Origin: an uncultured Chloroflexia bacterium
GTDB taxonomy: Bacteria; Chloroflexota; Ktedonobacteria; Ktedonobacterales; Ktedonobacteraceae
Assembly: GCA_963717105.1 (NCBI GenBank)
Contig: CAVQVL010000012.1
Span: 122,577 to 186,576, forward strand
Reading direction: 5' to 3'
Length of the DNA: 64,000 nt
Below, piece after piece: positions 2,496 through 63,255 of this stretch. The position numbers and the translations under genes are program-made. Under the pieces are notes generated by a model. That model ran no database searches. It saw only the letters and a program-made list of their open reading frames with translations, and was not told the DNA's origin. Position 1 is the stretch's first letter. Each line of letters opens with the position of its first letter.

Positions 2496-3011
2496 ATGGC
2501 ATCAAAGCAATACAGTGCCCCGCCCCAGATGCAAATTGACCCGAAGAAACACTATCAGGCCATATTCCATACGGAGCAGGGCGATTTTCAGGTCGAGTTG
2601 TTCGCGGCCCAGGCACCGGTGACCGTCAACAACTTTGTCTTCCTGGCCCGCGAGGGTTTCTACAACGGCACAACGTTCCATCGCGTTATGCATAACTTCA
2701 TGGCACAGGGCGGCGATCCCACCGGTACAGGTATGGGTGGCCCCGGCTACAAATTCAACGACGAGCGCGGTGCCCTCGAACTTCAACACAACAGCGAAGG
2801 TATTCTCTCGATGGCCAATGCTGGCCGCAACACCAACGGCTCGCAGTTCTTTATCACCTACGGCCCGACGCCCCACCTGAACGGCAAGCACGGCGTCTTC
2901 GGCAAAGTCACCTCCGGTATGAATGTCGTGCACTCCATTGAGGAACGCGACCCGCAACGCGCCCGCAACGCCGGCACCCAGGTCCTCTCGATAGATATCG
3001 TTGAGAGCTAG
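2496..3011 (+). CDS. Cyclophilin-type peptidyl-prolyl cis-trans isomerase (soluble)
   Basis: 171-aa ORF with [30 protein letters not shown] and [16 protein letters not shown] motifs. Confidence 0.9.
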
Positions 3012-3093
3012 TAGAGAAGTACCTGCTCATACAAAAGTTAACTGGTCGCCGACGGCGACCAGTTAACTTTTGTATGAGCAGGTACTTCTCTAC
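3011..3093. terminator. Perfect 40-bp-stem hairpin (3-nt loop) starting at the last base of the PPIase stop codon
   Basis: 3011-3050 is the exact reverse complement of 3054-3093 (checked base by base). Confidence 0.7.
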
Positions 3094-3104
3094 TGTACAT
3101 ATAA

Positions 3105-4304
3105 TTGGCTCCAATCCTTGAAAGATATACCGGTCTGACCCTTCCTCGTGTTATAATACCTCTGGATATATGCGAACACATGCGCATACCTTACTTACTC
3201 ATACGGGAAAGACAATCTTTGGATCGACCACAGCAGCTGAATGACATACACATACTTCCACTGTTACCGCCGCCGGGGCGGCGTTATGTGCGCTCGTTTC
3301 TTTTTGCGCGGCGCATTGATGCACCTTTTGCGAAGGTACATTTGATTGCGCGGATCATACTGGTTCTGTGCCTCTCTTCGGCCCTCTTGCGCACAATCAA
3401 TACGGGACAGCCTGATCTTGTGGGGGCGGCTCTGCTTTGGTGCGCCGCCCTGTGCGTGTTTCTCCTGAGCGGCATCAGCGCAAGAGTGGCGCGTTTGTAT
3501 GCTCTGCTTACGTTGCCTGCGCTACTGGCGATTTTTTTGACGTGGGCAATTTTCAATCCTATCCCCGGTAGCGTCACATTAGTACGCCTTTCAGTGTATG
3601 CAGGTCAGCTTGATATTGCGCTGGCACCGTGGCAAGCCGTGTTGTTGCTGATTGGTGGCGGCTATTTTTTGTGGACACGCAAACTCGCGTTGGGCATACT
3701 ATGTAGCATCATAGCAGCTTTTATCGTCGCACATTGGGTGCCACTGCCCGAATGGCGGCTGGCACAGGTCGCTTTTTTCCACCCGTTGACGGTGCTGGTC
3801 AGTGATCGAGGTTTGCTGACGGCGATTACAAAAGTTATTGGGTACGCGGGAATGGTGCTGGCTACTATCGCCCTTGTCGTCACGGCGCGGGATGTCGAGT
3901 TGATTGGTGCATTGCGACAACTGCACGTACCATCGGCCGTTACCTTCTTTCTAGCTACTGTGTTTCGATCGCTCGACCTTGCGCTGGCGGACTACAACAC
4001 TATTCACTCGGCACAGGTGGCACGAGCCGTCAATGCCCGCCCGCGCAGTTTCATCCAGCGTTTGCGCGATCTGGCAAGCATCGCGGTACCGATGGTTGCA
4101 ATGATGATCCGGCGTTCCAGCGAAATCGGCGACGCACTGTTGGTTCGTGGCTACACGCTTGGTCGCCGGGATAAGGATTTCTACGAAACCAGTCCGTGGC
4201 GGCTGCTTGATTGGGACGTCGTTGCACTGAGTCTTGTCCTGCTCTATCTCGCAGTAGGGCCGCATCCCACTGTAACGGCGTTGCTGTGGAGTGGCTACCT
4301 ATGA
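3105..4304 (+). CDS. ecfT: ECF transporter transmembrane (T) component, EcfT/CbiQ family
   Basis: Polytopic ORF with the C-terminal signature MMIRRSSEIGDALLVRGY. Its stop overlaps the ATPase start (ATGA at 4301-4304). The true start may be the in-frame ATG at 3180, because an extended -10 (TGTTATAAT, 3149-3157) lies inside the long ORF. Confidence 0.75.
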   Translation: MAPILERYTGLTLPRVIIPLDICEHMRIPYLLIRERQSLDRPQQLNDIHILPLLPPPGRRYVRSFLFARRIDAPFAKVHLIARIILVLCLSSALLRTINTGQPDLVGAALLWCAALCVFLLSGISARVARLYALLTLPALLAIFLTWAIFNPIPGSVTLVRLSVYAGQLDIALAPWQAVLLLIGGGYFLWTRKLALGILCSIIAAFIVAHWVPLPEWRLAQVAFFHPLTVLVSDRGLLTAITKVIGYAGMVLATIALVVTARDVELIGALRQLHVPSAVTFFLATVFRSLDLALADYNTIHSAQVARAVNARPRSFIQRLRDLASIAVPMVAMMIRRSSEIGDALLVRGYTLGRRDKDFYETSPWRLLDWDVVALSLVLLYLAVGPHPTVTALLWSGYL

Positions 4305-6298
4305 CAACGGATGCACTGCGCATAGACGGCCTCTGGTGGCGATATCCAACCTATAGTGACGAAGCCAATGCATGGATATTGCGCGACGTTCGCCTGAATG
4401 TGGAGCAAGGGACATGTTTCGGCATTACTGGCCCAGGTGGTGCGGGTAAAACGACGCTGTGCCGGGCCATGCTCGGTATCATTCCGCATAGCGCACGCCT
4501 CACCTCCGAGCAGCTGCCGCAGCATTTTCGTGGCAATGTCGCCGTATTTGGCGAGACCGTCACTTCACAAACGCCCCTCACGAACCATATTGGTATGGTC
4601 TTGCAAGACCCGGAAAACCAGTTCTTACGTATGAGCTTGCTGCATGAACTGGGGCTCGGTTTGCAAATCCAGGGTGTGCCTTCCAATGAGATTTTGCAGC
4701 GTACTCATGAAGCATTAGCAATGGTTGGGCTGGAACATCTCTGGCACGGCGCAGCCTATCTTCATCCTGCCGACCTCTCAGGTGGACAAAAACAGCGCGT
4801 CGCCATCGCTGCTTTTCTGGCAATGCGCCCGCGCATCCTTGTCCTCGACGAACCAACCAGCGACCTTGACCCAGCTGGCAAGCGCGAAATTATTAAGACG
4901 ATTGCACGCCTGCGCCAGCAAGAGCAAATGACCATTATTCTGGTCGAACAAGACCCCGATATTCTCGCCACCTTCTGCAATACCATCGCATTACTTCACG
5001 AGGGCCGCGTGGCACTGGTCGCGCCGCCAGCCGAATTTTACGCTCAACGCACTCTCTTAGAGCAGAGTGGAGCCTCCGTTGGCGAACTACCCCGCATCTC
5101 CTGGTATAGCGGCTATACCTTTGATGGGCGTCCGCCATTAACCATAGAGGAAGGCGCGACGGCGTTCGGTGCTGGTTTGACGGTGAGGCAGACAGCCACA
5201 CATGACCCGACGGATGATAGATGGATAGCCAAGAGCCGGACGGTCACAAATGAGCCCACGGACGCCCACAAGGGGCCCCACCCCACATCCACCCAGCCCC
5301 CGTCCCTACTATATACGGAAGGCACATCCTCGGAGGATGTTTCCGCAAAGCGGACGTATTTCCGGCGTATAGTAGGGACGGGGGTGGCGTGGTTGCGGGG
5401 TGGGGCCCCTTGTGGGCGTCCGTCCGGGTCCTCCATTGCCAATATAACTCATGCCGGTGGTGAGCCCTCCGGTTCCCCCGTGGTCACTGCCGAGAATGTT
5501 GGGTATCACTATGCAGACGGCACGGTGGCGTTACAGGGGGTTGACATGACGGTATACCGGGGCGAAATGCTGGCATTGTTGGGACCGAATGGGAGCGGAA
5601 AAACGACATTGGCTCGCATACTGGCGGGCCTGTATCGCGCCTCTCGTGGGAGCGTGCACGTATTGGGGCAAGACCTTTCCTCACGCAAGGTACGCGCACG
5701 GTTGCCGCGCTCCGTGGGTTACGTTTTCCAGAACCCCGACCACCAGCTTTTCCGCCGCAAGGTCTCCGACGAAATTGCTTATGGACTCAAGAATCTGGGT
5801 ATTGACGCCGCACATCGCCGCATCATCGTTGAAGAGACATTGGAAGCGGTCAACCTCACTCGCTACGCGAACGAAGATCCGCTTTTCTTAAGCAAGGGAC
5901 AACGCCAACGTCTGGCTGTAGCAGCAGTACTGGCGATGGGAGCGGAGATTCTGGTGGTAGACGAGCCGACGACCGGGCAGGACTTCCGCTCGGTACAAGC
6001 CATCATGCATCTGCTCGTGAATCTACAACAGCAGGGCAAAACGATTGTCATCATCACTCATGACATGTCGCTCGTTGCCGAATATTGCCAGCGCGTCTTC
6101 ACTTTCCGCACTGGGCGTATTGCTTTCACGGGAACGCCGCGAGAACTTTTCCAGAATCGCGACGTTCTTCACAGAACCGAATTACGCCAGCCGACTGCGG
6201 CGGCACTCTCCAGCCATCTGCGCGAATCATACCCCGAATTACCCTTCCTGCTGACCGTCCAGGAATGGGTAGACGCATTGTCACACGGTGAGAAATAA
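4301..6298 (+). CDS. Fused double ABC ATPase of an ECF transporter (EcfA1-EcfA2-like) with an unusually long inter-domain linker
   Basis: Two Walker A motifs (GPGGAGKTT, GPNGSGKTT), two signature motifs (LSGGQKQRV, LSKGQRQRL) and two Walker B motifs (LVLDEPTS, LVVDEPTT). Start taken at ATG 4301, coupled to the ecfT stop. Confidence 0.85.
   Translation: MTTDALRIDGLWWRYPTYSDEANAWILRDVRLNVEQGTCFGITGPGGAGKTTLCRAMLGIIPHSARLTSEQLPQHFRGNVAVFGETVTSQTPLTNHIGMVLQDPENQFLRMSLLHELGLGLQIQGVPSNEILQRTHEALAMVGLEHLWHGAAYLHPADLSGGQKQRVAIAAFLAMRPRILVLDEPTSDLDPAGKREIIKTIARLRQQEQMTIILVEQDPDILATFCNTIALLHEGRVALVAPPAEFYAQRTLLEQSGASVGELPRISWYSGYTFDGRPPLTIEEGATAFGAGLTVRQTATHDPTDDRWIAKSRTVTNEPTDAHKGPHPTSTQPPSLLYTEGTSSEDVSAKRTYFRRIVGTGVAWLRGGAPCGRPSGSSIANITHAGGEPSGSPVVTAENVGYHYADGTVALQGVDMTVYRGEMLALLGPNGSGKTTLARILAGLYRASRGSVHVLGQDLSSRKVRARLPRSVGYVFQNPDHQLFRRKVSDEIAYGLKNLGIDAAHRRIIVEETLEAVNLTRYANEDPLFLSKGQRQRLAVAAVLAMGAEILVVDEPTTGQDFRSVQAIMHLLVNLQQQGKTIVIITHDMSLVAEYCQRVFTFRTGRIAFTGTPRELFQNRDVLHRTELRQPTAAALSSHLRESYPELPFLLTVQEWVDALSHGEK
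5260..5421. repeat. Imperfect inverted repeat (~54-nt arms, 5 mismatches) translated in-frame within the ATPase linker
   Basis: 5260-5313 versus the reverse complement of 5367-5421: the first 21 nt and a further 10-nt block are identical, and the two 10-nt blocks between them carry 2 and 3 mismatches. The spacer contains the small hairpins ACATCCTCGGAGGATGT and CCGCAAAGCGG. Confidence 0.7.
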
Positions 6299-7097: not shown

Positions 7098-7170
7098 TGT
7101 ATATAACAACACGAGCCAGCTAGAAAAACTTCTAAGAAGTTTTTCTAGCTGGCTCGTGTTGTTATATACA
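7098..7170. terminator. Perfect 36-bp-stem palindrome (1-nt centre)
   Basis: 7098-7133 is the reverse complement of 7135-7170. It lies 8 nt downstream of the stop of the minus-strand ORF 7178-7417. Confidence 0.55.
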
Positions 7171-7177
7171 AAAAATC

Positions 7178-7417: not shown

Positions 7418-7718
7418 CTATCCACCTCACTTAACTACTCTCTACTCACCAGAAGACGAACTTTCCATTTTCTCATTATTAATGAAAATGCGCCATTTGT
7501 AAAGGTGAAGACGGTTGAGGTTTGGTTGCGGCTTGGTTGCGGCTTGCCCGGAATAGAATCGCTGAAAGCAATGTTGGAAAAGAGAGAAAGAATGCAATAG
7601 CGAGAGAACGGGGGAATAGCCCGAACGGCGGGTTCAGCAAAAGTTGGCTTGACAGCGGACATGTTGCTGATGTATTATCCACTGGTGAGGATTTTTCCCT
7701 TTTTATAGTAGAAAACCT

Positions 7719-7801
7719 GGGCGGTTGCTGAAATTGGTAGACAGGATAGACTTAGGATCTATTGGTGATGAACCGTGAGAGTTCGAGTCTCTCACCGCCC
7801 A
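7719..7801 (+). tRNA. tRNA-Leu (anticodon TAG)
   Basis: Acceptor stem GGGCGGT/ACCGCCC. Anticodon stem ATAGA/TCTAT with loop CTTAGGA. Long variable arm. T-arm GAGAG-TTCGAGT-CTCTC. Discriminator A. Confidence 0.9.
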
Positions 7802-7871
7802 CCGCGCTGTAAGGCGCAGATTTTTTGCGAAAAGAAAACATGAGTGGTCACTCGCGCCTGTTGGAGGAAAT

Positions 7872-9356
7872 GTGAAGGTTTCGGTCGAAAAGCTGCCAAC
7901 CAGTGAAGCGGTCTTAAATGTAGATTTGACCTGGGACGACCTGGAAAAGGCATCAGATAAAGCATATCGAAAATTAGTAAAGCAAGTTGATATACAGGGC
8001 TTTCGTCGTGGCAAGGCCCCACGCTCTTTGCTTGAGCGCAAAATTGGCAAAGAATCTATCTATCAGGAAGGTCTTGATGAACTGATCAATGAGACCTACC
8101 GCAATGCCTTGAAAGAACATGAATTAACCCCCATTCGGCAGCCAGAGGTTGATGCGCCCGTTCTGGAGATCGGGCAGCCGTACCACTTTAGCCTCAAAGT
8201 CCCAATCCTCTCTCCCGTCGTCCTGGGCGATTACCACTCACTTCATATTGACCGTGAAGAAGTCGCTGTCACCTCAGAAGAGGTTGAAAGCGAGATAGAA
8301 TCGCTGCGTAACCGGCAAGTCACCTGGCATGAAGTTGAACGCCCCGCCGAATATGGCGACCGCGTCACCGTTGATCTCAAACTCACGGTTGAAGAAGAGA
8401 ACATCTCCGACCTGAAAGACAATCCCTTTGAGCTGACACAGGAACGACATGGCCTGTTCGTTGGCATGGATGAGCAGGTGGTAGGAATGCAGCCCGGCGA
8501 GAGCAAAGATTTCACCACCACTATTCCCGCCGACTACTCAAATGAGAAAATAGCGGGCAAAGAGGCACACTACCATGTGACCCTCTATAAAATAGAGGCC
8601 AAGGAAACTCCTGAACTCGATGATGCCTTCGCGGCTAAGGTCAGCGAAAGCCAATTCGAGACAATGGAAGACTTGCGCAAAGCCATCAGCGACAATATTC
8701 TGGAGAACAAGCAGCGACATGTACGCGATGAGCTGCGTGAGCAGGTAGTCAACGCCGTCATCGAACAGGCCGAGGTCACACTGCACCCGGTGCTGGTTGA
8801 CGAAGAGGCGGAAGAGATGGTACACCAACTGTCACACAACTTGGAACGACAACGCATGTCGCTGGATCAGTACTTCATGCTCACGAAAAAGACACGCGAA
8901 GAATATCTGCAAGATATCCGCCCCGCTGCGGAAGCGCGTGTGAAGAGCCAGCTTGTACTGGACGAGGTAGCGCGAGAAGAGAAAATCAGCGTCGCGCCCG
9001 AAGAGTTAGAGGCACTTTATCGTGCATATGCCCAGGCCGGACAGCAGTTGGCTCGCTCGGAGGAACAAATCCGTTCGCTGTTATTCAGCTACCGGCGTGA
9101 AAAGACAATTACATTTCTGGTAGATGCGATTGCTGGCCCCGATCCCGATCAAATCAACGAGGAAGAGCAAAGCATTGAGAACGCGGAGGCCGCCGCTATC
9201 GCAGGTGAGCCCGACGTGATAGCCGAAGTTGAGGATGCCGGTGAGGCAACCGAGACACCTGAGGCAACTGGGGCAAGCGAAGTGACTGATACCAGTGTTG
9301 ACGAACAGGTTGACACGCCTGAAGCAACTGGCAACGTAGAGATGGGGGCGCAGTAA
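7872..9356 (+). CDS. tig: Trigger factor with an acidic C-terminal extension
   Basis: GTG start. N-terminus [55 protein letters not shown] is typical of Tig. The tail has PEATG repeats. Confidence 0.9.
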
Positions 9357-14525: not shown

Positions 14526-15137
14526 ATGAGTTGGAATCCTAATCCTGGACAGGACCCAAATCCACAGGGTCAGTACGGCGGCTATAATCCACCACCGGCA
14601 GGCGGGCAGCCTGGGCAGCCTGGGCAGCCTGGTTACCAGTATAACGCTTACAATCAACCCCCAAATGCAGGGCAACCGGGCTATCAGTATAACGCCTACG
14701 GTCAGCCGGGCTACCAGCCACCACCGAGAACCGCCAGCCCGCTTGGGCCGAGTTCTATCGGTATGGACCCCAAGATTGCCGCCGGTCTTGGCTACCTTAT
14801 CGGTATCATTGGCCTCATTTTCTTCTTCATTGAGAAGCAGAATCGTTTCGTAAAGTTTAACTCCTTGCAGGCCATCTTCCTGCACTTTGGCGTTGGAATC
14901 GTGGAAACTATTCTGCTCATTCCGTACTTTATCCTCGTGGTAGCTGCAGCTTCAGGCTCAGGATTTGCGGGTACCCTGGTACTCTTGTTTGCTTGCCTTA
15001 TGGGCCTCCTGGGTATTGCCTGGTTTGTTGGCTGGCTGGTAGCCATGATTTAGGCTTTCCAGGGCAAGTACTTCAAATTCCCCCTTATTGGCGACTGGGC
15101 CGAGAGGATTGTTAATAAATCACCTGGGCTGGTCTAA
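14526..15137 (+). CDS. DUF4870-like membrane protein (paralogue 2) carrying an in-frame TAG at 15051-15053
   Basis: The ORF-track ORF stops at TAG 15053, yet the same frame continues AFQGKYFKFPLIGDWAER to TAA 15135-15137. This matches the C-terminus of paralogue 1, and a long hairpin follows 2 nt later. Confidence 0.65.
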
Positions 15138-15138: not shown

Positions 15139-15216
15139 TTTGCCGTAGTAAACAAGACATGGGAAGCACCAGTGGCGTGCCACTGGTGCTTCCCATGTCT
15201 TGTTTACTACGGCAAA
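15139..15216. terminator. Perfect 38-bp-stem hairpin (2-nt loop)
   Basis: 15139-15176 is the reverse complement of 15179-15216. Confidence 0.7.
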
Positions 15217-15353
15217 CCCTCTAACTTTTAGTACGCTGACTCGTACATGTTTATAGTGACGAATGCATATTGAAACCTGTGGGTGTAAGAGGATACAATA
15301 CAAAGAACCTCACATCATTAGCGGGTCGCATTCAGGCAGAAAGAGAAACAGCT

Positions 15354-15980
15354 ATGAGCAGCAATTATAATTCAGAAGAAGATGATCAGGGCCAGCAAGG
15401 CGGATATACCGGTTATCGTGGCAATACAGCAAAGCAGCAACGACGTCCGTATAGTTACTCGGCGGAGCAACAGCAAGCGCAAGATTTCGGCTACGGCACC
15501 GGAACGCGTCCGGCAGGACAGCAACAACAACAACAGCAGCAACAACAGTATGGGCAGCGAAGCAAAGGCGCGTATCAACCGCCGCGCAGTGCCGCGAGAG
15601 GAACGTCGCCAGTTGACTCTACCTCAACCGGCTTGAACGCCCGCATGGAGGCACTGCTCAGTTACCTGCTCGGGTGGGTCACCGGCCTGATCTTTTTCGT
15701 CGTCGAACGCAAAAATAAGTATGTGCGCTTCCATGCCATCCAATCGTTTCTCTACTTTGGATCGTTGGCGATTATCTTAGGTATACTCAAGGTTGTAGGT
15801 GGCTTTCTCGGCTCCATTTTCTTGATCGGCTTCGTGCTGGGCTTCATCTTCAATGTTGCCATCTTCCTTGTCGGCTTCATCGTCTTCGTGAGTTGGCTCT
15901 ACCTGATGATACAAGCCTATCGGGGCAAAAAGCCCAAAGTACCGTTCTTCGGTGATTTTGCCGAACGTTTCAGCCGATAA
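15354..15980 (+). CDS. DUF4870-like membrane protein with a poly-Q N-terminus (paralogue 3)
   Basis: ATG 15354 preferred over the TTG at 15270. Q10 run, then EALLSYLLGWVTGLIFFVVERKNKYVRFHAIQS and PFFGDFAERF. Confidence 0.7.
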   Translation: MSSNYNSEEDDQGQQGGYTGYRGNTAKQQRRPYSYSAEQQQAQDFGYGTGTRPAGQQQQQQQQQQYGQRSKGAYQPPRSAARGTSPVDSTSTGLNARMEALLSYLLGWVTGLIFFVVERKNKYVRFHAIQSFLYFGSLAIILGILKVVGGFLGSIFLIGFVLGFIFNVAIFLVGFIVFVSWLYLMIQAYRGKKPKVPFFGDFAERFSR

Positions 15981-16066
15981 CATTTGCCCAGTCAGATAAA
16001 ACGGAAACAGGCATGGCGCGATGCGCCATGCCTGTTTCCGTTTTATCTGACTGGGCAAATGTTATC
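15976..16066. terminator. Perfect 44-bp-stem hairpin (3-nt loop) containing the TAA stop of the upstream gene
   Basis: 15976-16019 is the reverse complement of 16023-16066. Confidence 0.7.
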
Positions 16067-16151
16067 CTGAATTGCCACACACCATCCACTATGCTATACT
16101 TGCCCTCGGATACATAGATATATGTAGAGCGGAAGGGAGAACATACCCATC

Positions 16152-16715
16152 ATGGCTTACGATACAACAAATATGCAGAATCCATTTATTGTCGGGGAAC
16201 GCATCTACCTGCGACCGTTGGAGCCTGCCCAGGATAATCACGCTTACTCCACCTGGATGAACAATGAAGACATTCGCCGCTATTTCTCTATTTACCCCAC
16301 CAGCGACACTCGCGGCAAGGAGCGGCTGGAGCAACTGTACCGCGATGGGCGGCACATTATTTTTGGCGTGGCCCTCAACGAGGATAACACGCTGATTGGT
16401 CTCGTTGGCCTCAAGGATATCAATTATATCAACCAGACGGCGGAATTCTATGTCATTATTGGCGATCCCAAAGGCTGGGGCAAAGGCTACGGCACCGAGG
16501 CCACAAAGCTGATGCTGCGCTATGGTTTTCTGGAACTGAACCTCAACCGCATCCAGACACAGGATATGGAAGACAACATTGGAGGCTGGCGAGCCGATGA
16601 GAAGGCCGGTTTCAAGTACGAGGGAACGCTGCGCGAGGATATCCTGCGTTTCGGCAAATACTCGGACGTGCGTGTCTACAGCATCCTCAGGCGCGAATAT
16701 TTGGAACAACAATAA
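16152..16715 (+). CDS. GNAT-family N-acetyltransferase (RimJ/RimL-like)
   Basis: 187-aa ORF with IIGDPKGWGKGYGTEATKLMLRYGFLELNLNRI, the acetyl-CoA binding region of GNAT enzymes. Confidence 0.8.
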   Translation: MAYDTTNMQNPFIVGERIYLRPLEPAQDNHAYSTWMNNEDIRRYFSIYPTSDTRGKERLEQLYRDGRHIIFGVALNEDNTLIGLVGLKDINYINQTAEFYVIIGDPKGWGKGYGTEATKLMLRYGFLELNLNRIQTQDMEDNIGGWRADEKAGFKYEGTLREDILRFGKYSDVRVYSILRREYLEQQ

Positions 16716-18981: not shown

Positions 18982-19015
18982 AATAGAGACTCGACATTGC
19001 TGCGCTCGTCGAGGT

Positions 19016-19089
19016 GGGCGCGCTAAAGCGGACCACTACAGTGCCTGGGTACGCCTGCAAACACTGTAGTGGTCCGCTTTAGCGCACCC
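19016..19089. terminator. Long hairpin (perfect 24-bp core 19020-19043 / 19062-19085, imperfect outer extensions reaching 18994-19110)
   Basis: Core arms are exact reverse complements. Outer segments ACATTGCT and CGCTCGT pair again further out. Confidence 0.6.
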
Positions 19090-19502
19090 AGGCACGAGCG
19101 GTAGCAATGTGCCAGTCAGCCCATGTATTCCCAGTTCTATTTGTTCATGCGCATTATCGCGCCCGCGTCCTGAGCCAACAATAGACGCAAATTTGGGAGA
19201 GAGTAGTGGGTGTAGCGGGTGTAGTGGGTAAAAATATTTGACGATGGTGGAGGGCGTCCATCCTCTTGTTGCAATGCTACGGCTTTCATTTCATACAAAT
19301 GATACGACAGGTTCTTATAATATGCAGAAAAGATAGATAGTTATGTAAAAGAGCTATTGTATTGTATTATGCATAGAGTTTGTGTTATACTCAGAAATAA
19401 AATTTAGGGACCTGTGTAGCGCGGTAATAATTCTTCCATTCCTTCCAACGAACGCAGTGAAATCGAAGTGCCTGGCGAAACTTGAAGAATAGTGAGGATG
19501 CT

Positions 19503-28384: not shown

Positions 28385-29198
28385 ATGAAGGATAACATGG
28401 GACGTCGCACCAGGAAGGGGCCAAAGCGCGTGAGACTCAACAGCGAACACGATGAATCACTTGAACCATCTGAACAGCCGAAACAAGCAGAAGAACATGA
28501 GCAAGATGAGCAATCGGAACACGTTACTGATGAGCGTGAAACCATCTTGCGGGTGGAACACCTGGAGAAAGCATATGCCATTCCCGGCGGGCAATTGCAG
28601 GTGCTTGCATGATGTGAATTTAGCAGTGCAGCAAGGGGAGTTTGTGGCGATTACCGGGCCATCGGGGTCGGGCAAGACGACGTTGCTGGCGTTGTTGGGG
28701 GCGTTGGACACACCCGATAGCGGAGAAATCTGGCTGCACGATCAAGCGGTTCACAAACTGCGTGGCGTGGCTGCCGCCGATTTTCGCCGCGAGCAGGTGG
28801 GCTTTGTCTTCCAACTCTTCTACCTCTTGCCCAACCTGACGGCACTGGAAAACGTGATGGCCCCGTTGTTGCCCTATCGGCGCAAACTGGATTTTGATTT
28901 GAAGGAGCGGGCGAAAGAGTTGTTGGAGCGCGTCGGACTCGCGGAACGTATGGGCCATGCCCCGGCACGACTCTCTGGCGGCGAGCAGCAGCGCGTTGCC
29001 ATCGCTCGCTCCCTCATCAATCGTCCAAAGGTCTTGTTGGCGGACGAGCCGACGGGCAATCTGGACCCGCACACCGGCGTCGAGGTGCTGGATGTCTTGC
29101 GCGAGTTGCAACGGGCCGGCAGCCAGACGCTGATTATGGTCACCACGATCCCCAGGTGGCCGCTCTGGCCGATCGGCGCATTCACCTGGAACAGTTGA
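28385..29198 (+). pseudogene. MacB/LolD-type ABC transporter ATPase with an acidic N-terminal tail; frame broken near 28600 and near 29140; 3' end uncertain
   Basis: ILRVEHLEKAY (frame A), then GPSGSGKTT, LSGGEQQRVAIARSL and LLADEPTGNLD (frame B). After TLIMVT the expected HDPQVAALADRRIHL is found in a third frame. Confidence 0.7.
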
Positions 29199-29222: not shown

Positions 29223-29272
29223 AATGCATGAGCAGAGACAGTTGCCGTGGCAACTGTCTCTGCTCATGCATT
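29223..29272. terminator. Perfect 24-bp-stem hairpin (2-nt loop) with imperfect outer extension; overlaps the trmD stop
   Basis: 29223-29246 is the reverse complement of 29249-29272. It lies between convergent genes. Confidence 0.65.
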
Positions 29273-29986: not shown

Positions 29987-30109
29987 AGGTATCCCACCTT
30001 CCATTGTGTGTTACAATAACATCGTTGTCTCTTTCTGGCAAGTCTAAACATACAATGAAGCCGGAGGCCGATCAATCGGCCCTACAGCTTTTGTACACTG
30101 GAGCCTTCT

Positions 30110-35343: not shown

Positions 35344-35368
35344 CAGGAGAAACGCGAAGACAGTGGTA

Positions 35369-36639: not shown

Positions 36640-36701
36640 AGAAGTGACAGAAAGCACAAAGTTGCCGTCGCGATGGCAACTTTGTGCTTTCTGTCACTTC
36701 T
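36640..36701. terminator. Perfect 27-bp-stem hairpin (8-nt loop)
   Basis: 36640-36666 is the reverse complement of 36675-36701. Confidence 0.65.
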
Positions 36702-36812
36702 CCCTTGCATCAAGCGTAATTATAGCTGTAGCAAATTATGTAAAAAAGGAATCGTACTTCGTTCTGGTAGTAGACAGTGCTGATTTTGCCATTTGCCAGC
36801 AAAGGAGTGTCC

Positions 36813-38294: not shown

Positions 38295-38369
38295 GGGAAC
38301 AACCAACACGCCGCCTCGTGACCATGGTCACGAGGCGGCGTGTTGGTTGTTCCCTTATTTATCTCCCAA
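38280..38369. terminator. Perfect 44-bp-stem hairpin (2-nt loop) containing the last codons and stops of both convergent genes
   Basis: 38280-38323 is the reverse complement of 38326-38369. The plus-strand gene ends TTG GGA GAT AAA TAA in the left arm; the minus-strand gene ends ATT GGG AGA TAA in the right arm. Confidence 0.75.
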
Positions 38370-40032: not shown

Positions 40033-40294
40033 AAGCCATACCCTGTCCCTTTTTCGATGCTTAACAATGCCTACACTTAATTATACCGCCTGAGTAAAAA
40101 CATATCTTATCACAAATGTATCACAATTACCGGCATTTCACGAAATTTTTACGAGGAATATACGCTATCTCCCAAAATGTTGTGATACACTAAGAGATAG
40201 AGAAGGGAAATGTGCTCCTCCCCATGTTGGACAAAAATGAGGGCCTTGAGATTCATCGTTGCAACGATGCAAGGCACGGCTTGGAGGGTATCGT

Positions 40295-42788: not shown

Positions 42789-43830
42789 TTATCCACATTT
42801 TCTGTGGATAACTCGCTATTTTCAAGCTGATTCCCATGCAAAGAGTTATCCACAATGACCGTGGATAACTTATCCACATTTCCACGTGTGCAAAAGTAAT
42901 ATACCGGTTATCCACAGTCGTTGTGGATAACTTATCCACATTTTTTCTAACCAGTGGATAAGTTTTGAAGTTGTGCACAATTACTGTGGATAACTTATCC
43001 ACATTGTCCACATACAGACATCAGCAGGGATACTTATCCACAGTTGCTGTGGATAACTTATCCACACTTTTCCCAATTGGTGGATAACTTTTAAGTTATG
43101 CACATGTAGTGTGGATAAGTTATCCACATTGTCCACATACGGCTGTCAGCAGGGATAAGTTATCCACAGTTGCTGTGGATAACTTATCCACACTTCTCCC
43201 GATTGGTGGATAACTTTTGTGGTTATTTACATTCCTTCAAAGGACAGCAAATACAAATGTAGTGGTTTTAACCATAGCGTTATCACGCAAAAGAACGCAA
43301 AAAGTGGATAAATTACCTCAAAATGTGGACAACTCAGGCAAATTGTGTAAAAGTCCTTGCATCCCTCTCATATCTCTCCTCCGAGCCTGATGCTTGTTTC
43401 CCCTCTTAAACATATTCACATTTGTAGTGGATAACTTATCCACAATTTCATGAACAGGTGGATAACGTCGAAACTTATCCACATTCATTGTGAATAACTT
43501 ATCCACATTTTTCTCAACTGGTGGATAAGCTACGAGATTATCCACACAGCCTGTGGACAACTTATCCACAGGCTAACAAGAGAGAGAAAAGTTATCCACC
43601 AGGGCGGTCAAGTTATCCACAGCTTGTTCACTTCATTCACATACAGTGGATAAGTTATCCACAACGCCTACACCGGCCTCCAGAGCCATTTTATATAATT
43701 CAGTCAAGAATGAGAACCTTCAAAAAAAGCAAGTTATCCACTTATCCACAGCCCCTACTACTGCTGTTATATATTAAGTAATTAAAATAATATATTACGT
43801 AGTACGTAGGGGCTGTGGATAAGTGGATAA
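42789..43830. promoter_or_regulatory. Dense DnaA-box array: candidate chromosomal replication origin (oriC) or DnaA-titrating locus
   Basis: My manual count gives 19 TTATCCACA and 7 TGTGGATAA perfect 9-mers plus 19 single-mismatch variants. Ten head-to-head pairs are spaced by 1 nt. A 125-bp tandem duplication spans 42985-43109 / 43110-43233. Confidence 0.75.
43767..43797. other. AT-rich candidate DNA-unwinding element bracketed by a 17-bp inverted repeat (43742-43758 / 43806-43822)
   Basis: TTATATATTAAGTAATTAAAATAATATATTA has one G in 31 nt. The flanking TTATCCACAGCCCCTAC and GTAGGGGCTGTGGATAA are exact reverse complements. Confidence 0.5.
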
Positions 43831-44031: not shown

Positions 44032-46116
44032 GTGATGTCTACTATAGAGACAGTCAAAGCAAAAGTAGATGTGGTTGATGAGATTGGGCTGGTCGTCGCG
44101 CTCTCGAAATCGGGTAAGGCATTTAAGGGCCTGTGTCCATTTCACAACGAGCGCACACCCTCGTTTTATGTCTTTGCCGACTCGCAATCCTGGCACTGTT
44201 TTGGTTGTAACGAGGGCGGCGATGTTTTCACATTTGTGCAGAAGCAGCAGAATTTAGAATTTCGCGATGCGTTACTTTATCTCGCTGAGAAAGCCGGTGT
44301 CCCGGTAGAAGAGTACGCGGGCGGAAACCCGGAGGAAGAGCGGGAAACGCAGGCCATCAAAGAGCGTATGCGCAAAATGAACGAAGACGCGCAGTTGTGG
44401 TTTCACCAGATGTTGTTACGCTCGAAGGAGGCCGCGGGGGCCAGAGAGTATATAAAGAGTCGCGGGATTGCACCTGATACGGTGGTGGCATTTGGTCTTG
44501 GTTACGCTCCCCAGGGCCAAAGTTGGGATGGATTAACTCGTTACCTGCAGAGTCAGGGCTATACGGAGCGCGAATTGATAAATGGTGGCTTAGCACGAGA
44601 ACGCGAAGAGGGGAAAGGTGGTGGGGTCTATGATTACTTTCGGCAACGTCTTATCTTTCCTATTCGGGATACGCGCAGTCGAGTGATTGGTTTTGGCGGG
44701 CGGGAGTTAGGGGGCGGGCAACCAAAGTACTTGAATTCGCCGCAGACGTTACTGTTTGAAAAAAATAGCGTCTTATATGCATTGGATATGGCAAGGGACG
44801 CCATAAAACAGGCAAAGCAAGTGGTGATCGTCGAAGGGTATGTAGACGCGGTTATCGCGCATCAATATGGCACGACACAAACGGTAGCTTGCATTGGCAG
44901 TGCCATCACGGAAAAGCACATTCAACAATTAAAAAAGTTGACGAAGCAGGTAACGCTCGCGCTTGATCCTGACGCGGCTGGTGCCAGCGCAACTGAGCAT
45001 GGTATTCAGGAAGCGTTGAAAACGTTTGACCGCACCATCGTACCTGTCCCATTGGCGGGAACGCCCGGTGGATACGGTGGCCACAGTGGACGCAGACGCA
45101 ACGAGCCACGCGGTATTATTCGGCTGGAAGAGCAAGTAGATGCGGAAATCAATGTCCTGCAACTACCAGTGGGCGAGGACCCGGACGAGGTGATCCGCCG
45201 CGATTTTGCCTTCTGGGCCAACGCGGTAGCCCATCCTCTGCCCTTGATAGACTACTACTTCGCGACAAAGACGGCTGGCTTGAATTTACGTGAACCCGCG
45301 GGCCAGACAGAGGCGGCGAAGCGACTGTTACCTGTGATCGGGATGATTTCTGACCGTATCAAGCGTGACGCCTACATACGGAAGCTCGCATCAATGATCA
45401 GCATTGACGAGCGCAGTTTATACGATGAATTGCAGCGCAGCTTGCGAGGGCAGAAATCTACCGGTGTCGTGGCAGCATTCTCCGCATCAAATACTTCGGG
45501 GAAACGCACAACGAAGGGAAACGGCGAGGCCCAGGAAAAACCCGAATGGGCCGAGAATCTGTTGAGGCCGGGGGAACCGAAGAAACTGAGCCAGTTGAGG
45601 CGGGACACCTGCAAGAAAAGCGGAGTAGCAGAGGACTTGACAAAAGGAAGGTAGATAAGTTACAATGGGAGGACTACCTGATCGGGCTACTCTTGCACAA
45701 TCCTGGGTTAAGTACGCATGTTTGTGGTATAATAACTGATGGTGACTTTGCTGGGACTGACACGCGAGAGTTGTACCGCATTCTCAACTCTATGAACCAA
45801 CGTGGCTTTTCCTCCTCAAATCAACCCGTCGAACAAGTAGTGCCTTTTGCGTTGGCGGCAGCCGTCGCGAGGGCGCAAAAGTGTGCTGAGTCGAGTGCTT
45901 CAAAAGATGAAGTTGGACTGGTTCGGGACGCAGTCCAGTGTGCTACCCGACTCAAGCGAACGACGATTGATACAATTGAATATCGAGTTACAGTATCTCA
46001 TGCGCGAAGCAGAGACAACTGGTGACGTAACGTCAGAGCGGCAATTGCGCTTGCAACTGTTTGCGAACCAGCAACAGTTGCGAACAATTGACTCAGCAAC
46101 GCATTTGCAGGGGTAA
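44032..46116 (+). CDS. dnaG: DNA primase DnaG, frame broken near 45560-45650 and near 45955-45965
   Basis: Zn-finger CPFHNERTPSFYVFADSQSWHCFGCNEGGDVFTF, TOPRIM (VVIVEGYVDAV). The C-terminal helicase-binding region continues in two other frames (45546-46025, 45847-46116). Confidence 0.85.
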
Positions 46117-48610: not shown

Positions 48611-48689
48611 GCCGTAAAGAGAAAAAATGTGGCGGGTGTATGCTGGTAAATTGCCAGCATACACCCGCCACATTTTTTCTCTTTACGGC
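48611..48689. other. Perfect 36-bp-stem hairpin (7-nt loop) in a divergent intergenic region
   Basis: 48611-48646 is the reverse complement of 48654-48689. It is not downstream of any recognisable gene. TATAAT at 48602-48607 directly precedes it. Confidence 0.6.
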
Positions 48690-50280: not shown

Positions 50281-50322
50281 GTCACAGCATATGTAACAGT
50301 TAACTGTTACATATTCTGTGAC
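50281..50322. terminator. 21-bp-arm loopless palindrome (1 mismatch) between convergent gene ends
   Basis: GTCACAGCATATGTAACAGTT / AACTGTTACATATTCTGTGAC. Confidence 0.5.
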
Positions 50323-52350: not shown

Positions 52351-53445
<1,095 letters not shown>

Positions 53446-56972: not shown

Positions 56973-57024
56973 CAATGAATATCACTCTTGTGTTTTCCAT
57001 GAAACGATAGAGCAAATTTTAACA

Positions 57025-57042
57025 ATGTTTCATGTGAAACAT
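57025..57042. repeat. Copy 4 of the 18-bp palindrome (ATGTTTCATGTGAAACAT)
   Basis: Same convergent region, 70 bp after copy 3. Confidence 0.8.
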
Positions 57043-57059
57043 TTGGTGATTTCTGCTAA

Positions 57060-57077
57060 ATGTTTCACATGAAACAT
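57060..57077. repeat. Copy 5 of the 18-bp palindrome (ATGTTTCACATGAAACAT)
   Basis: 35 bp after copy 4. It ends 2 nt before the hutH stop codon. Confidence 0.8.
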
Positions 57078-57079
57078 TC

Positions 57080-58782: not shown

Positions 58783-59058
58783 TTGAAAAGAATGGCGGAT
58801 TTATCCAGCAAAGACCGTGAGAAATTGCCGGAAAGTGCCTTTGCTTTCCCGAAAGAGCGCAAAGAGCCACTGGTAGATGCACGCCACGTTCGAGAGGCTG
58901 TGGCTCGCTTTGATCAAGTCGAGAACGTTTCCAATAAAGAGCGCGACGAAGCCTGGAAACGCATCCAGCACGCCGCGAAAAAGTTTGACGTGGAACTGCA
59001 TGAGCAAAGCTGGCAAGACCTGTTTACCCACAATGGACACAAGGTGCCAGAGAAATAA
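58783..59058 (+). CDS. Small conserved hypothetical protein (DUF6582-like)
   Basis: LPESAFAFPKERKEPLVDARHVREAVARFDQV pattern. Alternative start at 58792. Confidence 0.55.
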   Translation: MKRMADLSSKDREKLPESAFAFPKERKEPLVDARHVREAVARFDQVENVSNKERDEAWKRIQHAAKKFDVELHEQSWQDLFTHNGHKVPEK

Positions 59059-59132
59059 CAGAGGAACCCATGCGAAAAACAGGTATCCGGCGTGCCGGAT
59101 ACCTGTTTTTCGCATGGGTTCCTCTGTTATTT
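59053..59132. terminator. Perfect 39-bp-stem hairpin (2-nt loop) carrying the Lys-stop (AAA TAA) of both convergent genes
   Basis: 59053-59091 is the reverse complement of 59094-59132. Confidence 0.75.
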
Positions 59133-60014
59133 AACGCGAATATTTGCCGTAAACTGGGCAACTGGAGCCACAACCAGCAAAATCAGCGTTCCAATGAGCA
59201 AAGGCAAGTTGGTATAGCGCGTAACGAAGGTGAGTTGCACCGGTGCGAGCAACACAAGGAAGTAGAGGCACTGTGCCAGTCCGGCGTATTTACCCCACAT
59301 AGTTGAGCCGAAACGCACCGGCTGCGCGAACAGAAGGTAGCTGCTCACGGCTGCCAGCAAAGGAATGAAGAAACGGAGCAGCATGATCAGACCAAGCCAG
59401 AGAGGCAAGACTGCATTCTGAATCAGGATCGTTGTCAGTGCGAGGTAGAGGCAGAAATCAACCTCGCTATCGCCTATCTGGCCCAGTTTGCTCTGCGTTC
59501 CGGTGCGACGTGCAACCTGACCATCAAGCATATCGGTCACGACCCCACAAAGAAAAACCAGCAGTGCCAATTCCGAGGCCGTACGGATACCACCAACCAG
59601 CCTGCCGAGCAAAAAAGAGGCCCCCAATGCTCGTAGCCACGTCAGGGTGTTAGCCATACCAAGCTCTGGCAGCAACGTTCCTGTTTTTGCCGACCTGTTC
59701 AGACCGAGATGCCAGAACAGGTCACTTTGTTGCCATATGGTGCAAAAAAGAAAACCGGGAAGTATGCGTAAGGTAATATTGCTCCCCTCAAAGAGCAAGC
59801 AGGCTGCAAGAATGACTACTACTAATATGCCGATGCAGACCGTAATGTTGCGCCACGAACGTTTCAGGGTGGAATGATCATTTGCGGTCTTGCACGACAT
59901 ATCCCAGGACCGCGCCAGGAAATGCCACCAGCCGGGTACGCTAAACTTCTCTTCGCGCAGTGTCGTAAGCAAATCTATGACGAACTGATTTTCGCCAATG
60001 CTATCCTGCCGCAT
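59127..60014 (-). CDS. CDP-alcohol phosphatidyltransferase family protein
   Basis: DMLDGQVARRTGTQSKLGQIGDSEVD matches D-G-x2-A-R-x8-G-x3-D-x3-D. Polytopic. Confidence 0.85.
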   Translation of the reverse strand: MRQDSIGENQFVIDLLTTLREEKFSVPGWWHFLARSWDMSCKTANDHSTLKRSWRNITVCIGILVVVILAACLLFEGSNITLRILPGFLFCTIWQQSDLFWHLGLNRSAKTGTLLPELGMANTLTWLRALGASFLLGRLVGGIRTASELALLVFLCGVVTDMLDGQVARRTGTQSKLGQIGDSEVDFCLYLALTTILIQNAVLPLWLGLIMLLRFFIPLLAAVSSYLLFAQPVRFGSTMWGKYAGLAQCLYFLVLLAPVQLTFVTRYTNLPLLIGTLILLVVAPVAQFTANIRVK

Positions 60015-60093: not shown

Positions 60094-60117
60094 CGCTTGA
60101 GTGAAATATAAGAATGT

Positions 60118-61423: not shown

Positions 61424-61588
61424 TATAAAATCAGCCTCCTTCAGAACGTTCTGTTTCTTCCCACGTTATAACACACCATGCCGATGAAGTCGAGTCCAGT
61501 CATTTTCAGGTTGCGAGAAGTTAAAGTGGTATAGACATCTTGACAAACTATATGAGGAGAGTTTATAGTTCTTTTAACGGTATTGTTT

Positions 61589-61654
61589 GAAGAGAGATAA
61601 AAAAGCTGGACTATTTCGCCGCGGCGAAATAGTCCAGCTTTTTTATCTCTCTTC
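61589..61654. other. Perfect 32-bp-stem hairpin (2-nt loop) in a divergent intergenic region, preceded by a sigma-70-like promoter
   Basis: 61589-61620 is the reverse complement of 61623-61654. TTGACA (61540-61545), an 18-nt spacer and TATAGT (61564-69) lie on the plus strand just upstream. Confidence 0.55.
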
Positions 61655-61694
61655 ATTCTACCTTTGGAAACCCTCACTTGCTCTTGATGCCTGA

Positions 61695-62027: not shown

Positions 62028-62370
62028 AGACGAGGAAGAAGCGTTTCCCTACAAAACTATTAGCACCGATGAAGCGAAACGCATGATCGAGAGCGGCGTA
62101 CATGTGATTGATGTACGGCAGCCGGAGGAATGGAATCGCGGCCACATACCAGAGGCAGAACTGGTACCCCTTAACGGTATTTATTCATTTGGCAAGGCAC
62201 TCAAAGACCTCAATTTGCCCGAAGACGATGCCGTAATTTTCGTCTGCGCGATGGGCCAGCGTAGTGCTTCCGCGTCAGAAATTGCAATGGTGGCAGGGCT
62301 GAAAAACGTATACAATCTGGCAAATGGCATGAACGGGTGGGTTGGTCGTCGTTACCCCATCGAACGGTAA
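62017..62370 (+). CDS. Rhodanese-domain sulfurtransferase
   Basis: IDVRQPEEWNRGHIPEA and active-site loop CAMGQRS. Confidence 0.85.
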   Translation: MDYEDEEEAFPYKTISTDEAKRMIESGVHVIDVRQPEEWNRGHIPEAELVPLNGIYSFGKALKDLNLPEDDAVIFVCAMGQRSASASEIAMVAGLKNVYNLANGMNGWVGRRYPIER

Positions 62371-62399
62371 GCTAGATTGTTTGTAAAAAGGAGGTCTAT

Positions 62400-63170
62400 A
62401 TGCCCCTTCTTGAAGGAAAGAAAGCCCTTATTTTTGGTATCGCCAATCATCGTTCCATTGGTTGGGCCATCGCGCAGGCACTTGCCGCCGAGGGAGCGCA
62501 ACTCGCCTTCTCCTATCAGGAGCGCATGGAAAAATATGTGCGCGATCTCGCGGCAAAAATTCCCGGCACTACTGTTATGGAATGCGATGTGCAGAATGAT
62601 GAGCAACTGGACGCCGCCTTTGCTCAGGCAAGCGAAGTGTTCAACGGCCAACTGGATATCCTCATTCATTCCGTTGCCTTTGCGCCGCCACGCGAGTTGG
62701 AAAATCCCTTTGTCGAAACGACCCGCGAAGGTTTCCATACTGCACTCGACATCAGTGCCTACTCGCTGGTCGCGATGGCAAAACGTGCCAAACCGTTGAT
62801 GCAGGCAAACGGTGGCAGCATCCTCACACTTACCTATATGGCGAGTGAACGCGTTATGCCTAAATACAATGTAATGGCGGTAGCGAAGGCTGCACTGGAG
62901 TGCAGTGTGCGCTATCTGGCTTTTGAACTGGGCGAACACAATATTCGCGTCAATGCCATATCCGCTGGGCCGCTCAATACGCTGGCAGCGCGTGGTGTCT
63001 CTGGCTTCACCGCCTTCCGCGAGCAGATGGGTTCTTCGGCTCCTCTGCGCCGCAATATTGAGCAGAGCGAGGTGGGAGATGCTGCCATGTTCCTGTGCAG
63101 CCCGCTCGCCCGTGCGATTACCGGCGAAATCATGTTCGTAGACGCCGGTTACAACATCATGGGCGCATAG
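62400..63170 (+). CDS. fabI: Enoyl-[acyl-carrier-protein] reductase (NADH)
   Basis: GKKALIFGIANHRSIGWAIAQ, YNVMAVAKAALE, SAGPLNTLAA. Confidence 0.9.
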   Translation: MPLLEGKKALIFGIANHRSIGWAIAQALAAEGAQLAFSYQERMEKYVRDLAAKIPGTTVMECDVQNDEQLDAAFAQASEVFNGQLDILIHSVAFAPPRELENPFVETTREGFHTALDISAYSLVAMAKRAKPLMQANGGSILTLTYMASERVMPKYNVMAVAKAALECSVRYLAFELGEHNIRVNAISAGPLNTLAARGVSGFTAFREQMGSSAPLRRNIEQSEVGDAAMFLCSPLARAITGEIMFVDAGYNIMGA

Positions 63171-63255
63171 ATGTAATACAGGAGAAAAAACAGACGTTTG
63201 CATGAGATGCTCAGCGTCTCATGCAAACGTCTGTTTTTTCTCCTGTATTACATCT
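63169..63255. terminator. Perfect 39-bp-stem hairpin (9-nt loop) beginning inside the fabI TAG stop
   Basis: 63169-63207 is the reverse complement of 63217-63255. Confidence 0.7.

Follow-up and report, generated by a model that had tools for sequence, protein, structure and literature searches.

Long perfect palindromes at gene ends in Ktedonobacterales as putative bidirectional terminators, probably lengthened and homogenized by template switching

A 64,000-nucleotide stretch of DNA from an uncultured Chloroflexia bacterium of the family Ktedonobacteraceae (GenBank assembly GCA_963717105.1, contig CAVQVL010000012.1, positions 122,577 to 186,576; hereafter the window) carries long perfect palindromes, many of them at the ends of genes, that are real, lie far beyond chance expectation and have counterparts elsewhere in the order Ktedonobacterales. 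Judging from sequence comparison, we propose with a probability of roughly 0.6 that these palindromes are bidirectional terminator hairpins that have been lengthened and homogenized by template switching. The narrower claim that their arms are homogenized at the level of DNA, taken alone, we regard as highly probable.

Long palindromes at gene ends

An inverted-repeat scan and an exhaustive scan for perfect arms with loops of up to 20 nt were run on the window and recovered all 16 inverted repeats of the original prediction to within 1 nt of their starts, with 15 of them perfect and the one at 50281 carrying a single mismatch, exactly as had been claimed. The arm range given there, 19 to 44 bp, holds except at its upper end, as the longest arm (38280) measures 45 nt. 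Fourteen long perfect palindromes with arms of 24 to 45 nt and loops of 0 to 18 nt (starting at 3010, 7098, 15139, 15976, 19020, 29223, 33529, 35368, 36640, 38280, 48611, 59053, 61588, and 63168) are accompanied by three shorter elements, at 50281 (the one with a mismatch), 53402, and 57024. Random sequence yields nothing of the kind: the longest perfect arm in 30 Markov-1 sequences of window composition was 13 nt, and a mismatch-tolerant finder returned zero hairpins of score ≥16 across five random windows. When the same code was applied to 100 kb of Escherichia coli K-12, no arm exceeded 14 nt, a length reached by the thr attenuator and by a repetitive extragenic palindromic (REP) element, in agreement with a published survey of noncoding inverted repeats in E. 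coli K-12, where all arms are shorter than 20 bp with a mean of 5.75 (PMC5941160). Arm lengths in the window are bimodal, a chance-like tail that stops at 13 nt being set apart from a second mode of 34 to 45 nt, and together with the short arms of the controls this confirms the palindromes and places them beyond chance. A BLAST search of each long palindrome against the 64-kb window gave only chance matches of 11 to 13 nt, which upholds the earlier statement that each has a different sequence and that they do not form a dispersed family. The exceptions to single-copy status in the window are 53402 and 57024, built from a motif present in seven copies; that the center of 53402 is this recurring 18-nt motif had been noticed before. 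A scan of the window at Rfam gathering thresholds detected two tRNAs alone, and the palindromes matched no known RNA family.

To find relatives, species-representative genomes were scanned with the GH57 gene (36777-38294) as the protein anchor. The result assigns the window to the Ktedonobacteraceae (Chloroflexota), with 86% protein identity at the best locus. A scan of metagenomes identified no relative closer than 86% amino acid identity but yielded many pairs of nearly identical contigs, which served for a census of events, and no exact match in another assembly is on record for two window proteins adjacent to palindromes. Perfect arms of at least 18 nt occur in the cultured Ktedonobacter racemifer, K. 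robiniae, and Ktedonobacter sp. SOSP1-85 and in many independent metagenome-assembled genomes, and palindromes stand at sites orthologous to those of the window in two independent assemblies, here labeled L001 and L062. Our pooled set of 138 Ktedonobacterales sources (1.50 Mb, including 80 further metagenomic loci) contains 224 hairpins of score ≥16, of which 183 (82%) are perfect, 32 contain a single mismatch, and 9 contain more than one. Density is patchy, with a peak of 4.7 per 10 kb and a value of 2.5 per 10 kb in the window.

Gene context was taken from simple longest-open-reading-frame (ORF) calls, complemented in the window by Pfam annotation. Across all sources, hairpins are densest between convergent genes (2.3 per kb), followed by tandem (0.64) and divergent (0.34) intergenic regions, and are very rare within ORFs (~0.014); in a smaller set, 58 of 118 distances to the facing stop codon fell between −15 and +10 nt. 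In the window, 10 of the 16 originally listed repeats touch the facing stop codon or sit within 10 nt of it, which bears out the proposed placement at gene 3' ends. Three others (15139, 19020, and 35368) lie 24 to 85 nt from it, and 53402 lies 99 nt away, yet upstream of the gap gene. Placement at stop codons and operon ends, with convergent regions ahead of tandem ones, tandem ahead of divergent ones, and all of these far ahead of coding sequence, is that of a transcription terminator.

The anatomy of the palindromes points the same way. A pooled profile of 76 palindromes shows a GC content of 65 to 75% at positions 1 to 3 from the center, a 3' arm that is T-rich (33 to 41%) and G-poor at approximately positions 13 to 34, and an A-rich 5' arm; runs of at least four T's occur in the 3' arm of 27 of 79 palindromes, and runs of at least four A's in that arm in 6. 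Half of the long window palindromes (7 of 14: 3010, 15976, 33529, 48611, 59053, 61588, and 63168) have a run of four to six T's 14 to 27 nt from the center, directly after a GC-rich inner stem and with a matching A-run in the 5' arm. The original prediction held that these repeats usually lack a clear U-tract and are in this respect unlike canonical terminators, a view that we do not share because the U-tract lies within the arm rather than past the full palindrome, with complementarity continuing for 10 to 20 nt beyond it. The excess of T-runs over A-runs in the pooled set likewise speaks against that view, as does a terminator scan that calls the core at 33550-33594. The inner stems are GC-rich and stable, with predicted RNA folding energies of −42 to −85 kcal/mol for the window palindromes, and the symmetry of A-tract and T-tract combined with convergent enrichment is what would be expected of terminators acting in both directions. 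Since a palindrome is the same on either strand, both strands read A-tract, stem-loop, and U-tract, which looks like the signature of a bidirectional intrinsic terminator. At the 3' end of GH57 in three further loci (L015 at 11533, L007 at 11544, and L105 at 7535), only the core AAAGCTCAGC...GCTGAGCTTT is common, and the apical and distal parts of the palindrome differ. This site hints that the selected part may be the base of the terminator stem with its A/T tracts.

Evolution of the arms and competing explanations

Comparison of orthologous palindromes revealed that the arms change together. Between 38280 and its L001 orthologue, 15 of 45 arm positions differ on a MAFFT alignment (8 transitions, 6 transversions, and 1 indel), a divergence of 33%, while the neighboring genes diverge by 38% at third codon positions. 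The arms of the window copy match without exception; in L001, 40 arm pairs match perfectly, or 42 if one mismatch close to the loop is admitted. The palindrome at 36640 is homologous in the window, L001, and L062, which carry differing substitutions, each mirrored in the partner arm. In a trio of Ktedonobacter with a third-position divergence of 6.8 to 10.5%, every difference in a palindrome at ~16.2 kb is mirrored, including an A7/T7 versus A6/T6 indel. Nineteen mirrored differences were found in 381 arm columns compared at a flank identity of 95 to 98%, where by our own estimate ~0.1 would be expected from independent double hits. Mirrored transversions and indels cannot pass via G·U intermediates. 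The loops tell a similar story: they are exact reverse complements of each other between cultured isolates at two sites (L018 versus L050) and a third (L023 versus L050), and inversions also separate metagenomic contigs (L064 versus L065/L066, L068/L070 versus L073, and L115 versus L117), some of these pairs having flanks that are 100% identical.

The ends and centers of the palindromes are equally informative. Only 3 of 104 perfect cores extend once mismatches are allowed, so that the palindromes end abruptly, and loops of 0, 1, 2, and 3 nt are found in 38, 23, 21, and 43 hairpins of the pooled set, respectively, meaning that symmetry crosses nucleotides that no RNA hairpin can pair. Residual mismatches in tandem contexts, read on the mRNA strand, comprise 13 G·U, 11 A·C, and 9 other pairs; in this small sample G·U is no commoner than A·C, which leaves a filter at the RNA level without support. 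In some relatives, the template arm can be identified. One arm in L038 consists of the last codons of GH57, GAA GAG AAT ATT GCA TGA (EENIA and stop), whose reverse complement makes up the far arm. Its relative L048 has ATC GCG among these codons, and the noncoding arm mirrors the synonymous changes. Conserved C-terminal codons of GH57 form one arm in L038, L048, and L051, and because relatives without an overlapping palindrome retain the same GH57 C terminus, the noncoding flank was overwritten with the coding arm as template. Turnover among close relatives takes the form of loss of a palindrome as a block, replacement by an unrelated one, or a decaying copy. K. robiniae and K. racemifer differ by presence and absence of a whole block past the GH57 stop codon, and the uroporphyrinogen decarboxylase gene ends, in the window as in L062, in a perfect palindrome that starts on the stop codon, the two palindromes being unrelated in sequence. 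The absence of decay claimed earlier is thus correct in that 82% of hairpins are perfect, and overstated in that single fresh mismatches and a decaying copy exist.

Mirrored multibase changes and indels, exact spacer inversion, and an identifiable template arm are the marks of template switching. The suggestion in the original prediction that a recurrent mechanism of this type generates the palindromes is strongly favored by mirrored changes at a near-neutral rate, loop inversions, and copied coding arms, and the comparison of orthologous intergenic regions recommended there found arms that covary, every change being mirrored, alongside unrelated replacements. We propose that the seeds are ordinary terminator hairpins, bidirectional and located at the ends of genes and operons. 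During replication or repair synthesis, one arm would repeatedly template the other by intra- or intermolecular template switching, a process also called quasipalindrome correction, which would erase fresh mismatches or copy them into the partner arm, flip the loop, and render the center palindromic. Complementarity would spread outward into changeable flank, often until it reaches or slightly enters coding sequence, and the palindrome sequence would drift neutrally with its symmetry kept. We infer polymerase template switching as the molecular route, as opposed to other arm-to-arm conversion, and the cores presumably terminate transcription. The distal extension is hard to explain by a function in RNA, because a transcript ending in the embedded U-tract would lack the distal 3' arm. 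Template switching has been reported to homogenize the arms of inverted repeats, to lengthen short repeats into perfect ones, and to invert spacers, preferring long arms (PMC8604942, PMC8794818, PMC5941160), and it is the presence of all three published signatures, arm homogenization, lengthening, and spacer inversion, that leads us to this reading.

Several observations weigh against it. Seventeen of 60 loci of ≥10 kb are without any hairpin. A T-run of at least four is present in only about a third of the pooled palindromes, and 29223, 35368, and 38280 have weak T-rich stretches only. No confident facing stop codon accompanies 7098, 48611, and 61588, 18 hairpins lie in apparently divergent intergenic regions, and gene context as a whole rests on longest-ORF calls rather than curated annotation. 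Loop flips between metagenomic contigs could reflect assembler ambiguity where the arm exceeds k, an objection concerning loop orientation in de Bruijn graphs from which the flips between cultured isolates are free. Finally, strong selection for pairing on both strands could also give mirrored changes and few G·T pairs.

The alternative that fares best, though we consider it unlikely, is neutral or selfish growth of palindromes without a terminator role. Frequent template switching in this lineage would generate and enlarge palindromes in any DNA that can change freely, and the 3' bias would arise only from constraint on promoter-bearing 5' regions and coding DNA. Such growth would fit arms that evolve at about the neutral rate without sequence conservation, palindromes that are lost or replaced by unrelated ones among close relatives, palindromic centers and parts past the T-tract that have no obvious function in RNA, and the hairpins in divergent regions. 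It does not predict the GC-rich center or the asymmetry of T-runs and A-runs (27 versus 6) unless the seeds were terminators, in which case it merges with the explanation that we prefer; nor does it predict a convergent density about 7 times the divergent one, or the conservation by three lineages of just the core AAAGCTCAGC...GCTGAGCTTT at the GH57 site.

Selection at the RNA level alone, in which duplexes would be kept as RNase III sites, 3'-exonuclease blocks, or insulators through ordinary compensatory evolution, seems improbable to us. Duplexes longer than 20 bp are RNase III substrates, and by sequence the palindromes reach this length of ~20 bp; their strong predicted folding (−42 to −85 kcal/mol) and their position at gene ends are compatible with such a role. 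Against this, a single arm has accumulated six transversions and one indel, all mirrored and at about the neutral rate, which cannot have taken the G·U route, and G·U is not in excess over A·C among the residual mismatches of the mRNA strand. Palindromy through the center, with loops of 0 to 3 nt, is useless for RNA, exact loop inversion is a DNA event, and the distal 3' arm would never be transcribed if termination occurred at the embedded T-tract.

A function in DNA, with cruciforms or hairpins serving as protein landmarks, topological barriers, or buffers of transcription or replication conflicts, is less probable still. Perfect central symmetry favors extrusion, and palindrome density peaks in convergent intergenic regions, in which polymerases collide and positive supercoiling builds up, but the palindromes have no shared sequence for a binding protein and their presence at a site is not conserved among close relatives. 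Insertion at gene ends of mobile or repeat elements, such as miniature inverted-repeat transposable elements (MITEs), REP/REPIN sequences, or IS200/IS605-type hairpin ends, has very little in its favor beyond the whole block that follows the GH57 stop codon in only one of K. robiniae and K. racemifer, the resemblance of 19020 to the terminal inverted repeats of a K. racemifer element, and the reported status of Ktedonobacter genomes as hosts of IS200/IS605-like elements. The long palindromes are single-copy in the 64-kb window, with chance matches of 11 to 13 nt only, which rules out a dispersed-repeat origin there; common termini or target-site duplications were not seen, nor was a RAYT or other transposase observed beside the palindromes, and arms can consist of the neighboring gene's own last codons. 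Assembly artifacts in the form of fold-back chimeras can practically be dismissed, as the window palindromes are internal and short, have orthologues in the independent assemblies L001 and L062, and have counterparts in cultured isolates. One true case was encountered, a perfect 222-nt fold-back with 109-nt arms at 5689-5910 of L077, which includes coding sequence and continues to the very end of its metagenomic contig; it has the typical look of a chimera made by the assembler, unlike the palindromes of the window.

Beyond terminators lengthened by template switching, we tentatively raise a further idea, to which we give rather low odds: that some Ktedonobacteraceae have unusually active or unrestrained palindrome formation, yielding runaway self-correcting terminators possibly with an acquired function of their own. 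An altered replisome or weak surveillance by SbcCD and ExoI/ExoVII may be the cause, and RNase III-dependent insulation of convergent transcription or cruciform-based chromosome organization may be the function. If true, the lineage would be a natural model both for tolerating and exploiting long perfect palindromes and for compensatory evolution of RNA stems by mutation rather than selection. The comparative data indicate that the perfection of a stem can be upheld by mutational copying and not by slow compensatory selection, which bears on the puzzle of RNA-stem evolution, on the origin and turnover of terminators, and on the limits of palindrome tolerance. There are practical consequences as well. 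Terminator predictors tuned to a short stem and a U-tail will misscore such palindromes, the C-terminal codons of convergent genes can be rewritten by a palindrome, and loop orientation at long palindromes is a trap for assemblers and variant callers.

Individual elements of the window

Seven long palindromes combine a GC-rich core with a clear T-run. The first, 3010-3094 (perfect, arms 42 nt, loop 1 nt), shares 2 nt with the stop codon of the cyclophilin gene 2496-3011 and has the inner stem GTTAACTGGTCGCCG followed by TTTT. Between convergent genes, 15976-16066 (perfect, arms 44, loop 3) takes in the stop codon of gene 15270-15980, with an overlap of 5 nt, and ends 22 nt from the stop codon of 16089-16712 on the minus strand, its core CGGAAACAGGCATGGCGC being followed by TTTTAT. 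The palindrome at 33529-33615 (perfect, arms 43, loop 1) begins on the stop codon of the uroporphyrinogen decarboxylase gene 32544-33530, and its core at 33550-33594, which the terminator scan calls on both strands, is followed by TTATTTTT. At 48611-48689 (perfect, arms 36, loop 7), the core TGTGGCGGGTGTATGCTGG precedes TTTTTT and the flanking ORFs are not confidently genes. At 59053-59132 (perfect, arms 39, loop 2), the core CAGGTATCCGGC precedes TTTTT, and the palindrome overlaps by 6 nt the 3' end of a CDP-alcohol phosphatidyltransferase gene (59127-60014, minus strand). The one at 61588-61655 (perfect, arms 34, loop 0; core AGCTGGACTATTTCGCCG, then TTTTTT) is situated 274 nt upstream of the start of an amidohydrolase gene, with no confident facing stop codon. 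The last, 63168-63256 (perfect, arms 40, loop 9; core CAGACGTTTGCATGAGA, then TTTTTT), has as its first bases the TAG stop codon of a gene resembling short-chain dehydrogenase/reductase (SDR) and enoyl-ACP reductase genes (62400-63170); at its other end, 6 nt separate it from the stop codon of the convergent gene 63263-63898 (minus strand).

Among the remaining long palindromes, 7098-7170 (perfect, arms 36, loop 1) is located between two unannotated ORFs pointing apart, with no confident facing stop codon. Between codirectional genes, 15139-15216 (perfect, arms 38, loop 2) lies 85 nt past gene 14526-15053 and has a T-rich stretch, TCTTGTTT, at 21 nt from its center. The palindrome at 29223-29272 (perfect, arms 24, loop 2), flanked by convergent genes, lies 24 nt past the ABC ATPase gene 28452-29198 and includes the last 9 nt of trmD (29264-30004, minus strand). 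At 35368-35451 (perfect, arms 42, loop 0), the palindrome lies 24 nt past gene 33880-35343 and upstream of tRNA-Pro, and at 36640-36701 (perfect, arms 27, loop 8) it lies 9 nt past the HNH gene 35929-36630. These two palindromes bracket the HNH gene and the adjoining tRNA-Pro (35615-35691), a region in which L062 has other spacing and no palindrome at the first site (35368). The palindrome at 38280-38369 (perfect, arms 45, loop 0) spans the whole 64-nt gap between GH57 (36777-38294, plus strand) and DUF4129 (38359-40032, minus strand) and encodes the last codons of both convergent genes in different frames, with GH57 ending in LGDK and DUF4129 in GR, both within the palindrome. Because GH57 orthologues keep a related C terminus, this arrangement suggests that it is the last codons of DUF4129 that were rewritten by the palindrome. 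In L062, the closest metagenomic relative, the gap between the same two genes measures ~800 nt (7491-8290), compared to the palindrome-filled 64 nt (38294-38359) of the window. The shorter hairpin at 50281-50322 (arms 21 with one mismatch, including a 13-nt perfect core) lies 10 nt past the tpi stop codon at the end of the gap-pgk-tpi operon on the minus strand; no hairpin occurs inside this operon.

The elements at 53402 and 57024 are of another class than the long palindromes, and 19020 probably is as well. The inverted repeat at 19015-19090 (core 19020-19085; perfect arms of 24 nt, loop 18) is GC-rich and without a T-run, and imperfect pairing continues to ~18995-19107. Its arm shares ~20 of 24 positions with the 28-nt terminal inverted repeats (GGACGCGCTAAAGCGGGTCCCTAC) of a ~150-nt K. 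racemifer element (L023 18358-18512), and we therefore consider 19020 to be probably of a different class and possibly a member of a rare MITE-like family. A dispersed motif, AAATGTTTCAYRTGAAACATTT, has seven copies between 53.4 and 60.1 kb, and exact copies of the 18-nt palindromic motif ATGTTTCAYRTGAAACAT occur at 53412, 55144, 56955, 57025, 57060, 60040, and 60076, where 0.01 would be expected. One of them forms the center of the palindrome at 53402-53439 (arms 19, loop 0; centered on ATGTTTCACGTGAAACAT), which lies 38 nt upstream of the gap start, and two inverted copies 13 nt apart make up 57024-57078, an element absent from the original prediction. Because the 18-nt motif mostly lies just upstream of gene starts, namely gap(-pgk-tpi), 55164 (unannotated, plus an SDR gene), and 60014 (CDP-alcohol phosphatidyltransferase), it is probably the operator of a local regulator, and 53402 is likely an operator rather than a terminator; three copies stand between convergent SDR and aromatic amino acid lyase genes.

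Three further features lie apart from the palindromes. A noncoding region of ~1 kb at 42789-43830, upstream of dnaG (44032-45654), contains 44 matches to the DnaA box TTATCCACA with ≤1 mismatch, many of them as inverted pairs, where ~12 would be expected by chance in 64 kb; a small cluster is also present at 1189-1343. GC skew changes at ~44 kb, from mixed on the near side to uniformly positive beyond. None of the annotated window ORFs was identified as dnaA. We regard 42789-43830 as a candidate replication origin or DnaA-titrating locus, unusually dense in boxes. Gene 4211-6298 contains, at 5258-5423, an imperfect inverted repeat of 166 nt that is G/C-rich and has 56-nt arms, 91% complementary, around a 54-nt spacer. 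It occupies the linker that joins the two ABC ATPase domains, in frame and free of stops, and resembles the in-frame insertions of Rickettsia palindromic elements (RPEs); the motif GTAGGGAC near its center is found again in further inverted repeats of Ktedonobacterales. A glycogen debranching enzyme gene (GDE_N and GDE_C) is split into overlapping ORFs at 40259-41977 and 41863-42744, with GDE_C divided between them; this is a frameshift, reflecting either a pseudogene or a sequencing error.

Comparison with known systems

Long perfect palindromes are usually deemed unstable and rare in bacterial chromosomes, yet here they reach one per 4 to 7 kb in some genomes of a single lineage. The open-access literature searched held no prior description of Ktedonobacter palindromes, of long terminator hairpins in Chloroflexi, or of concerted evolution of terminator palindromes. 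Both the mechanism and the class of terminator are known, and it is their combination in a bacterial lineage, giving perfect and unique palindromes of 50 to 90 bp at one per 4 to 7 kb with so clear a comparative record of arms evolving in concert, that appears to be undescribed.

REP/REPIN sequences and MITEs are likewise palindromic, extragenic, and often found at gene 3' ends, but REPs are multicopy and mobilized by RAYT, in contrast to the unrelated sequences described here, which are single-copy within the 64-kb window with the possible exception of 19020. Small loops between inverted repeats in noncoding chloroplast DNA are known to flip-flop, inverting recurrently among close relatives; the recurrent inversion is shared with our palindromes, and the organellar setting, the shorter stems, and the lack of a link to arm growth set these loops apart. 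Closer in form are the mitochondrial genes of Nematomorpha, with perfect coding palindromes of up to 284 bp (PMC6649704). They too are many, long, perfect, and individually unique in one genome, implying concerted evolution of the arms, and they differ in lying within protein-coding genes of an animal mitochondrion, whereas those of Ktedonobacterales are bacterial, intergenic, and terminator-like.

Bidirectional intrinsic terminators of bacteria (e.g., Ju et al. 2019, cited in PMC13613805) have the same succession of A-tract, GC-rich stem, and T-tract. They also share the enrichment between convergent genes and the location at stop codons or operon ends. Canonical stems are ~5 to 15 bp and often imperfect, whereas the putative terminators here have perfect arms of 24 to 45 nt in which complementarity passes the A/T tracts, continues for another 10 to 20 nt, and crosses the loop. 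Quasipalindrome correction by template switching was reportedly described by Ripley in 1982, with later work in E. coli said to have been reviewed by Lovett. Homogenization of arms, multibase mirrored changes, conversion of short into long perfect repeats, and exact spacer inversion are common to such correction and to the palindromes of Ktedonobacterales (Lavi et al. 2018, PMC5941160; Abraham and Hazkani-Covo 2021, PMC8604942; Monttinen and Loytynoja 2022, PMC8794818). The described cases are short and sporadic, whereas here the process would act on palindromes of 50 to 90 bp, apparently genome-wide and in a lineage-specific manner.

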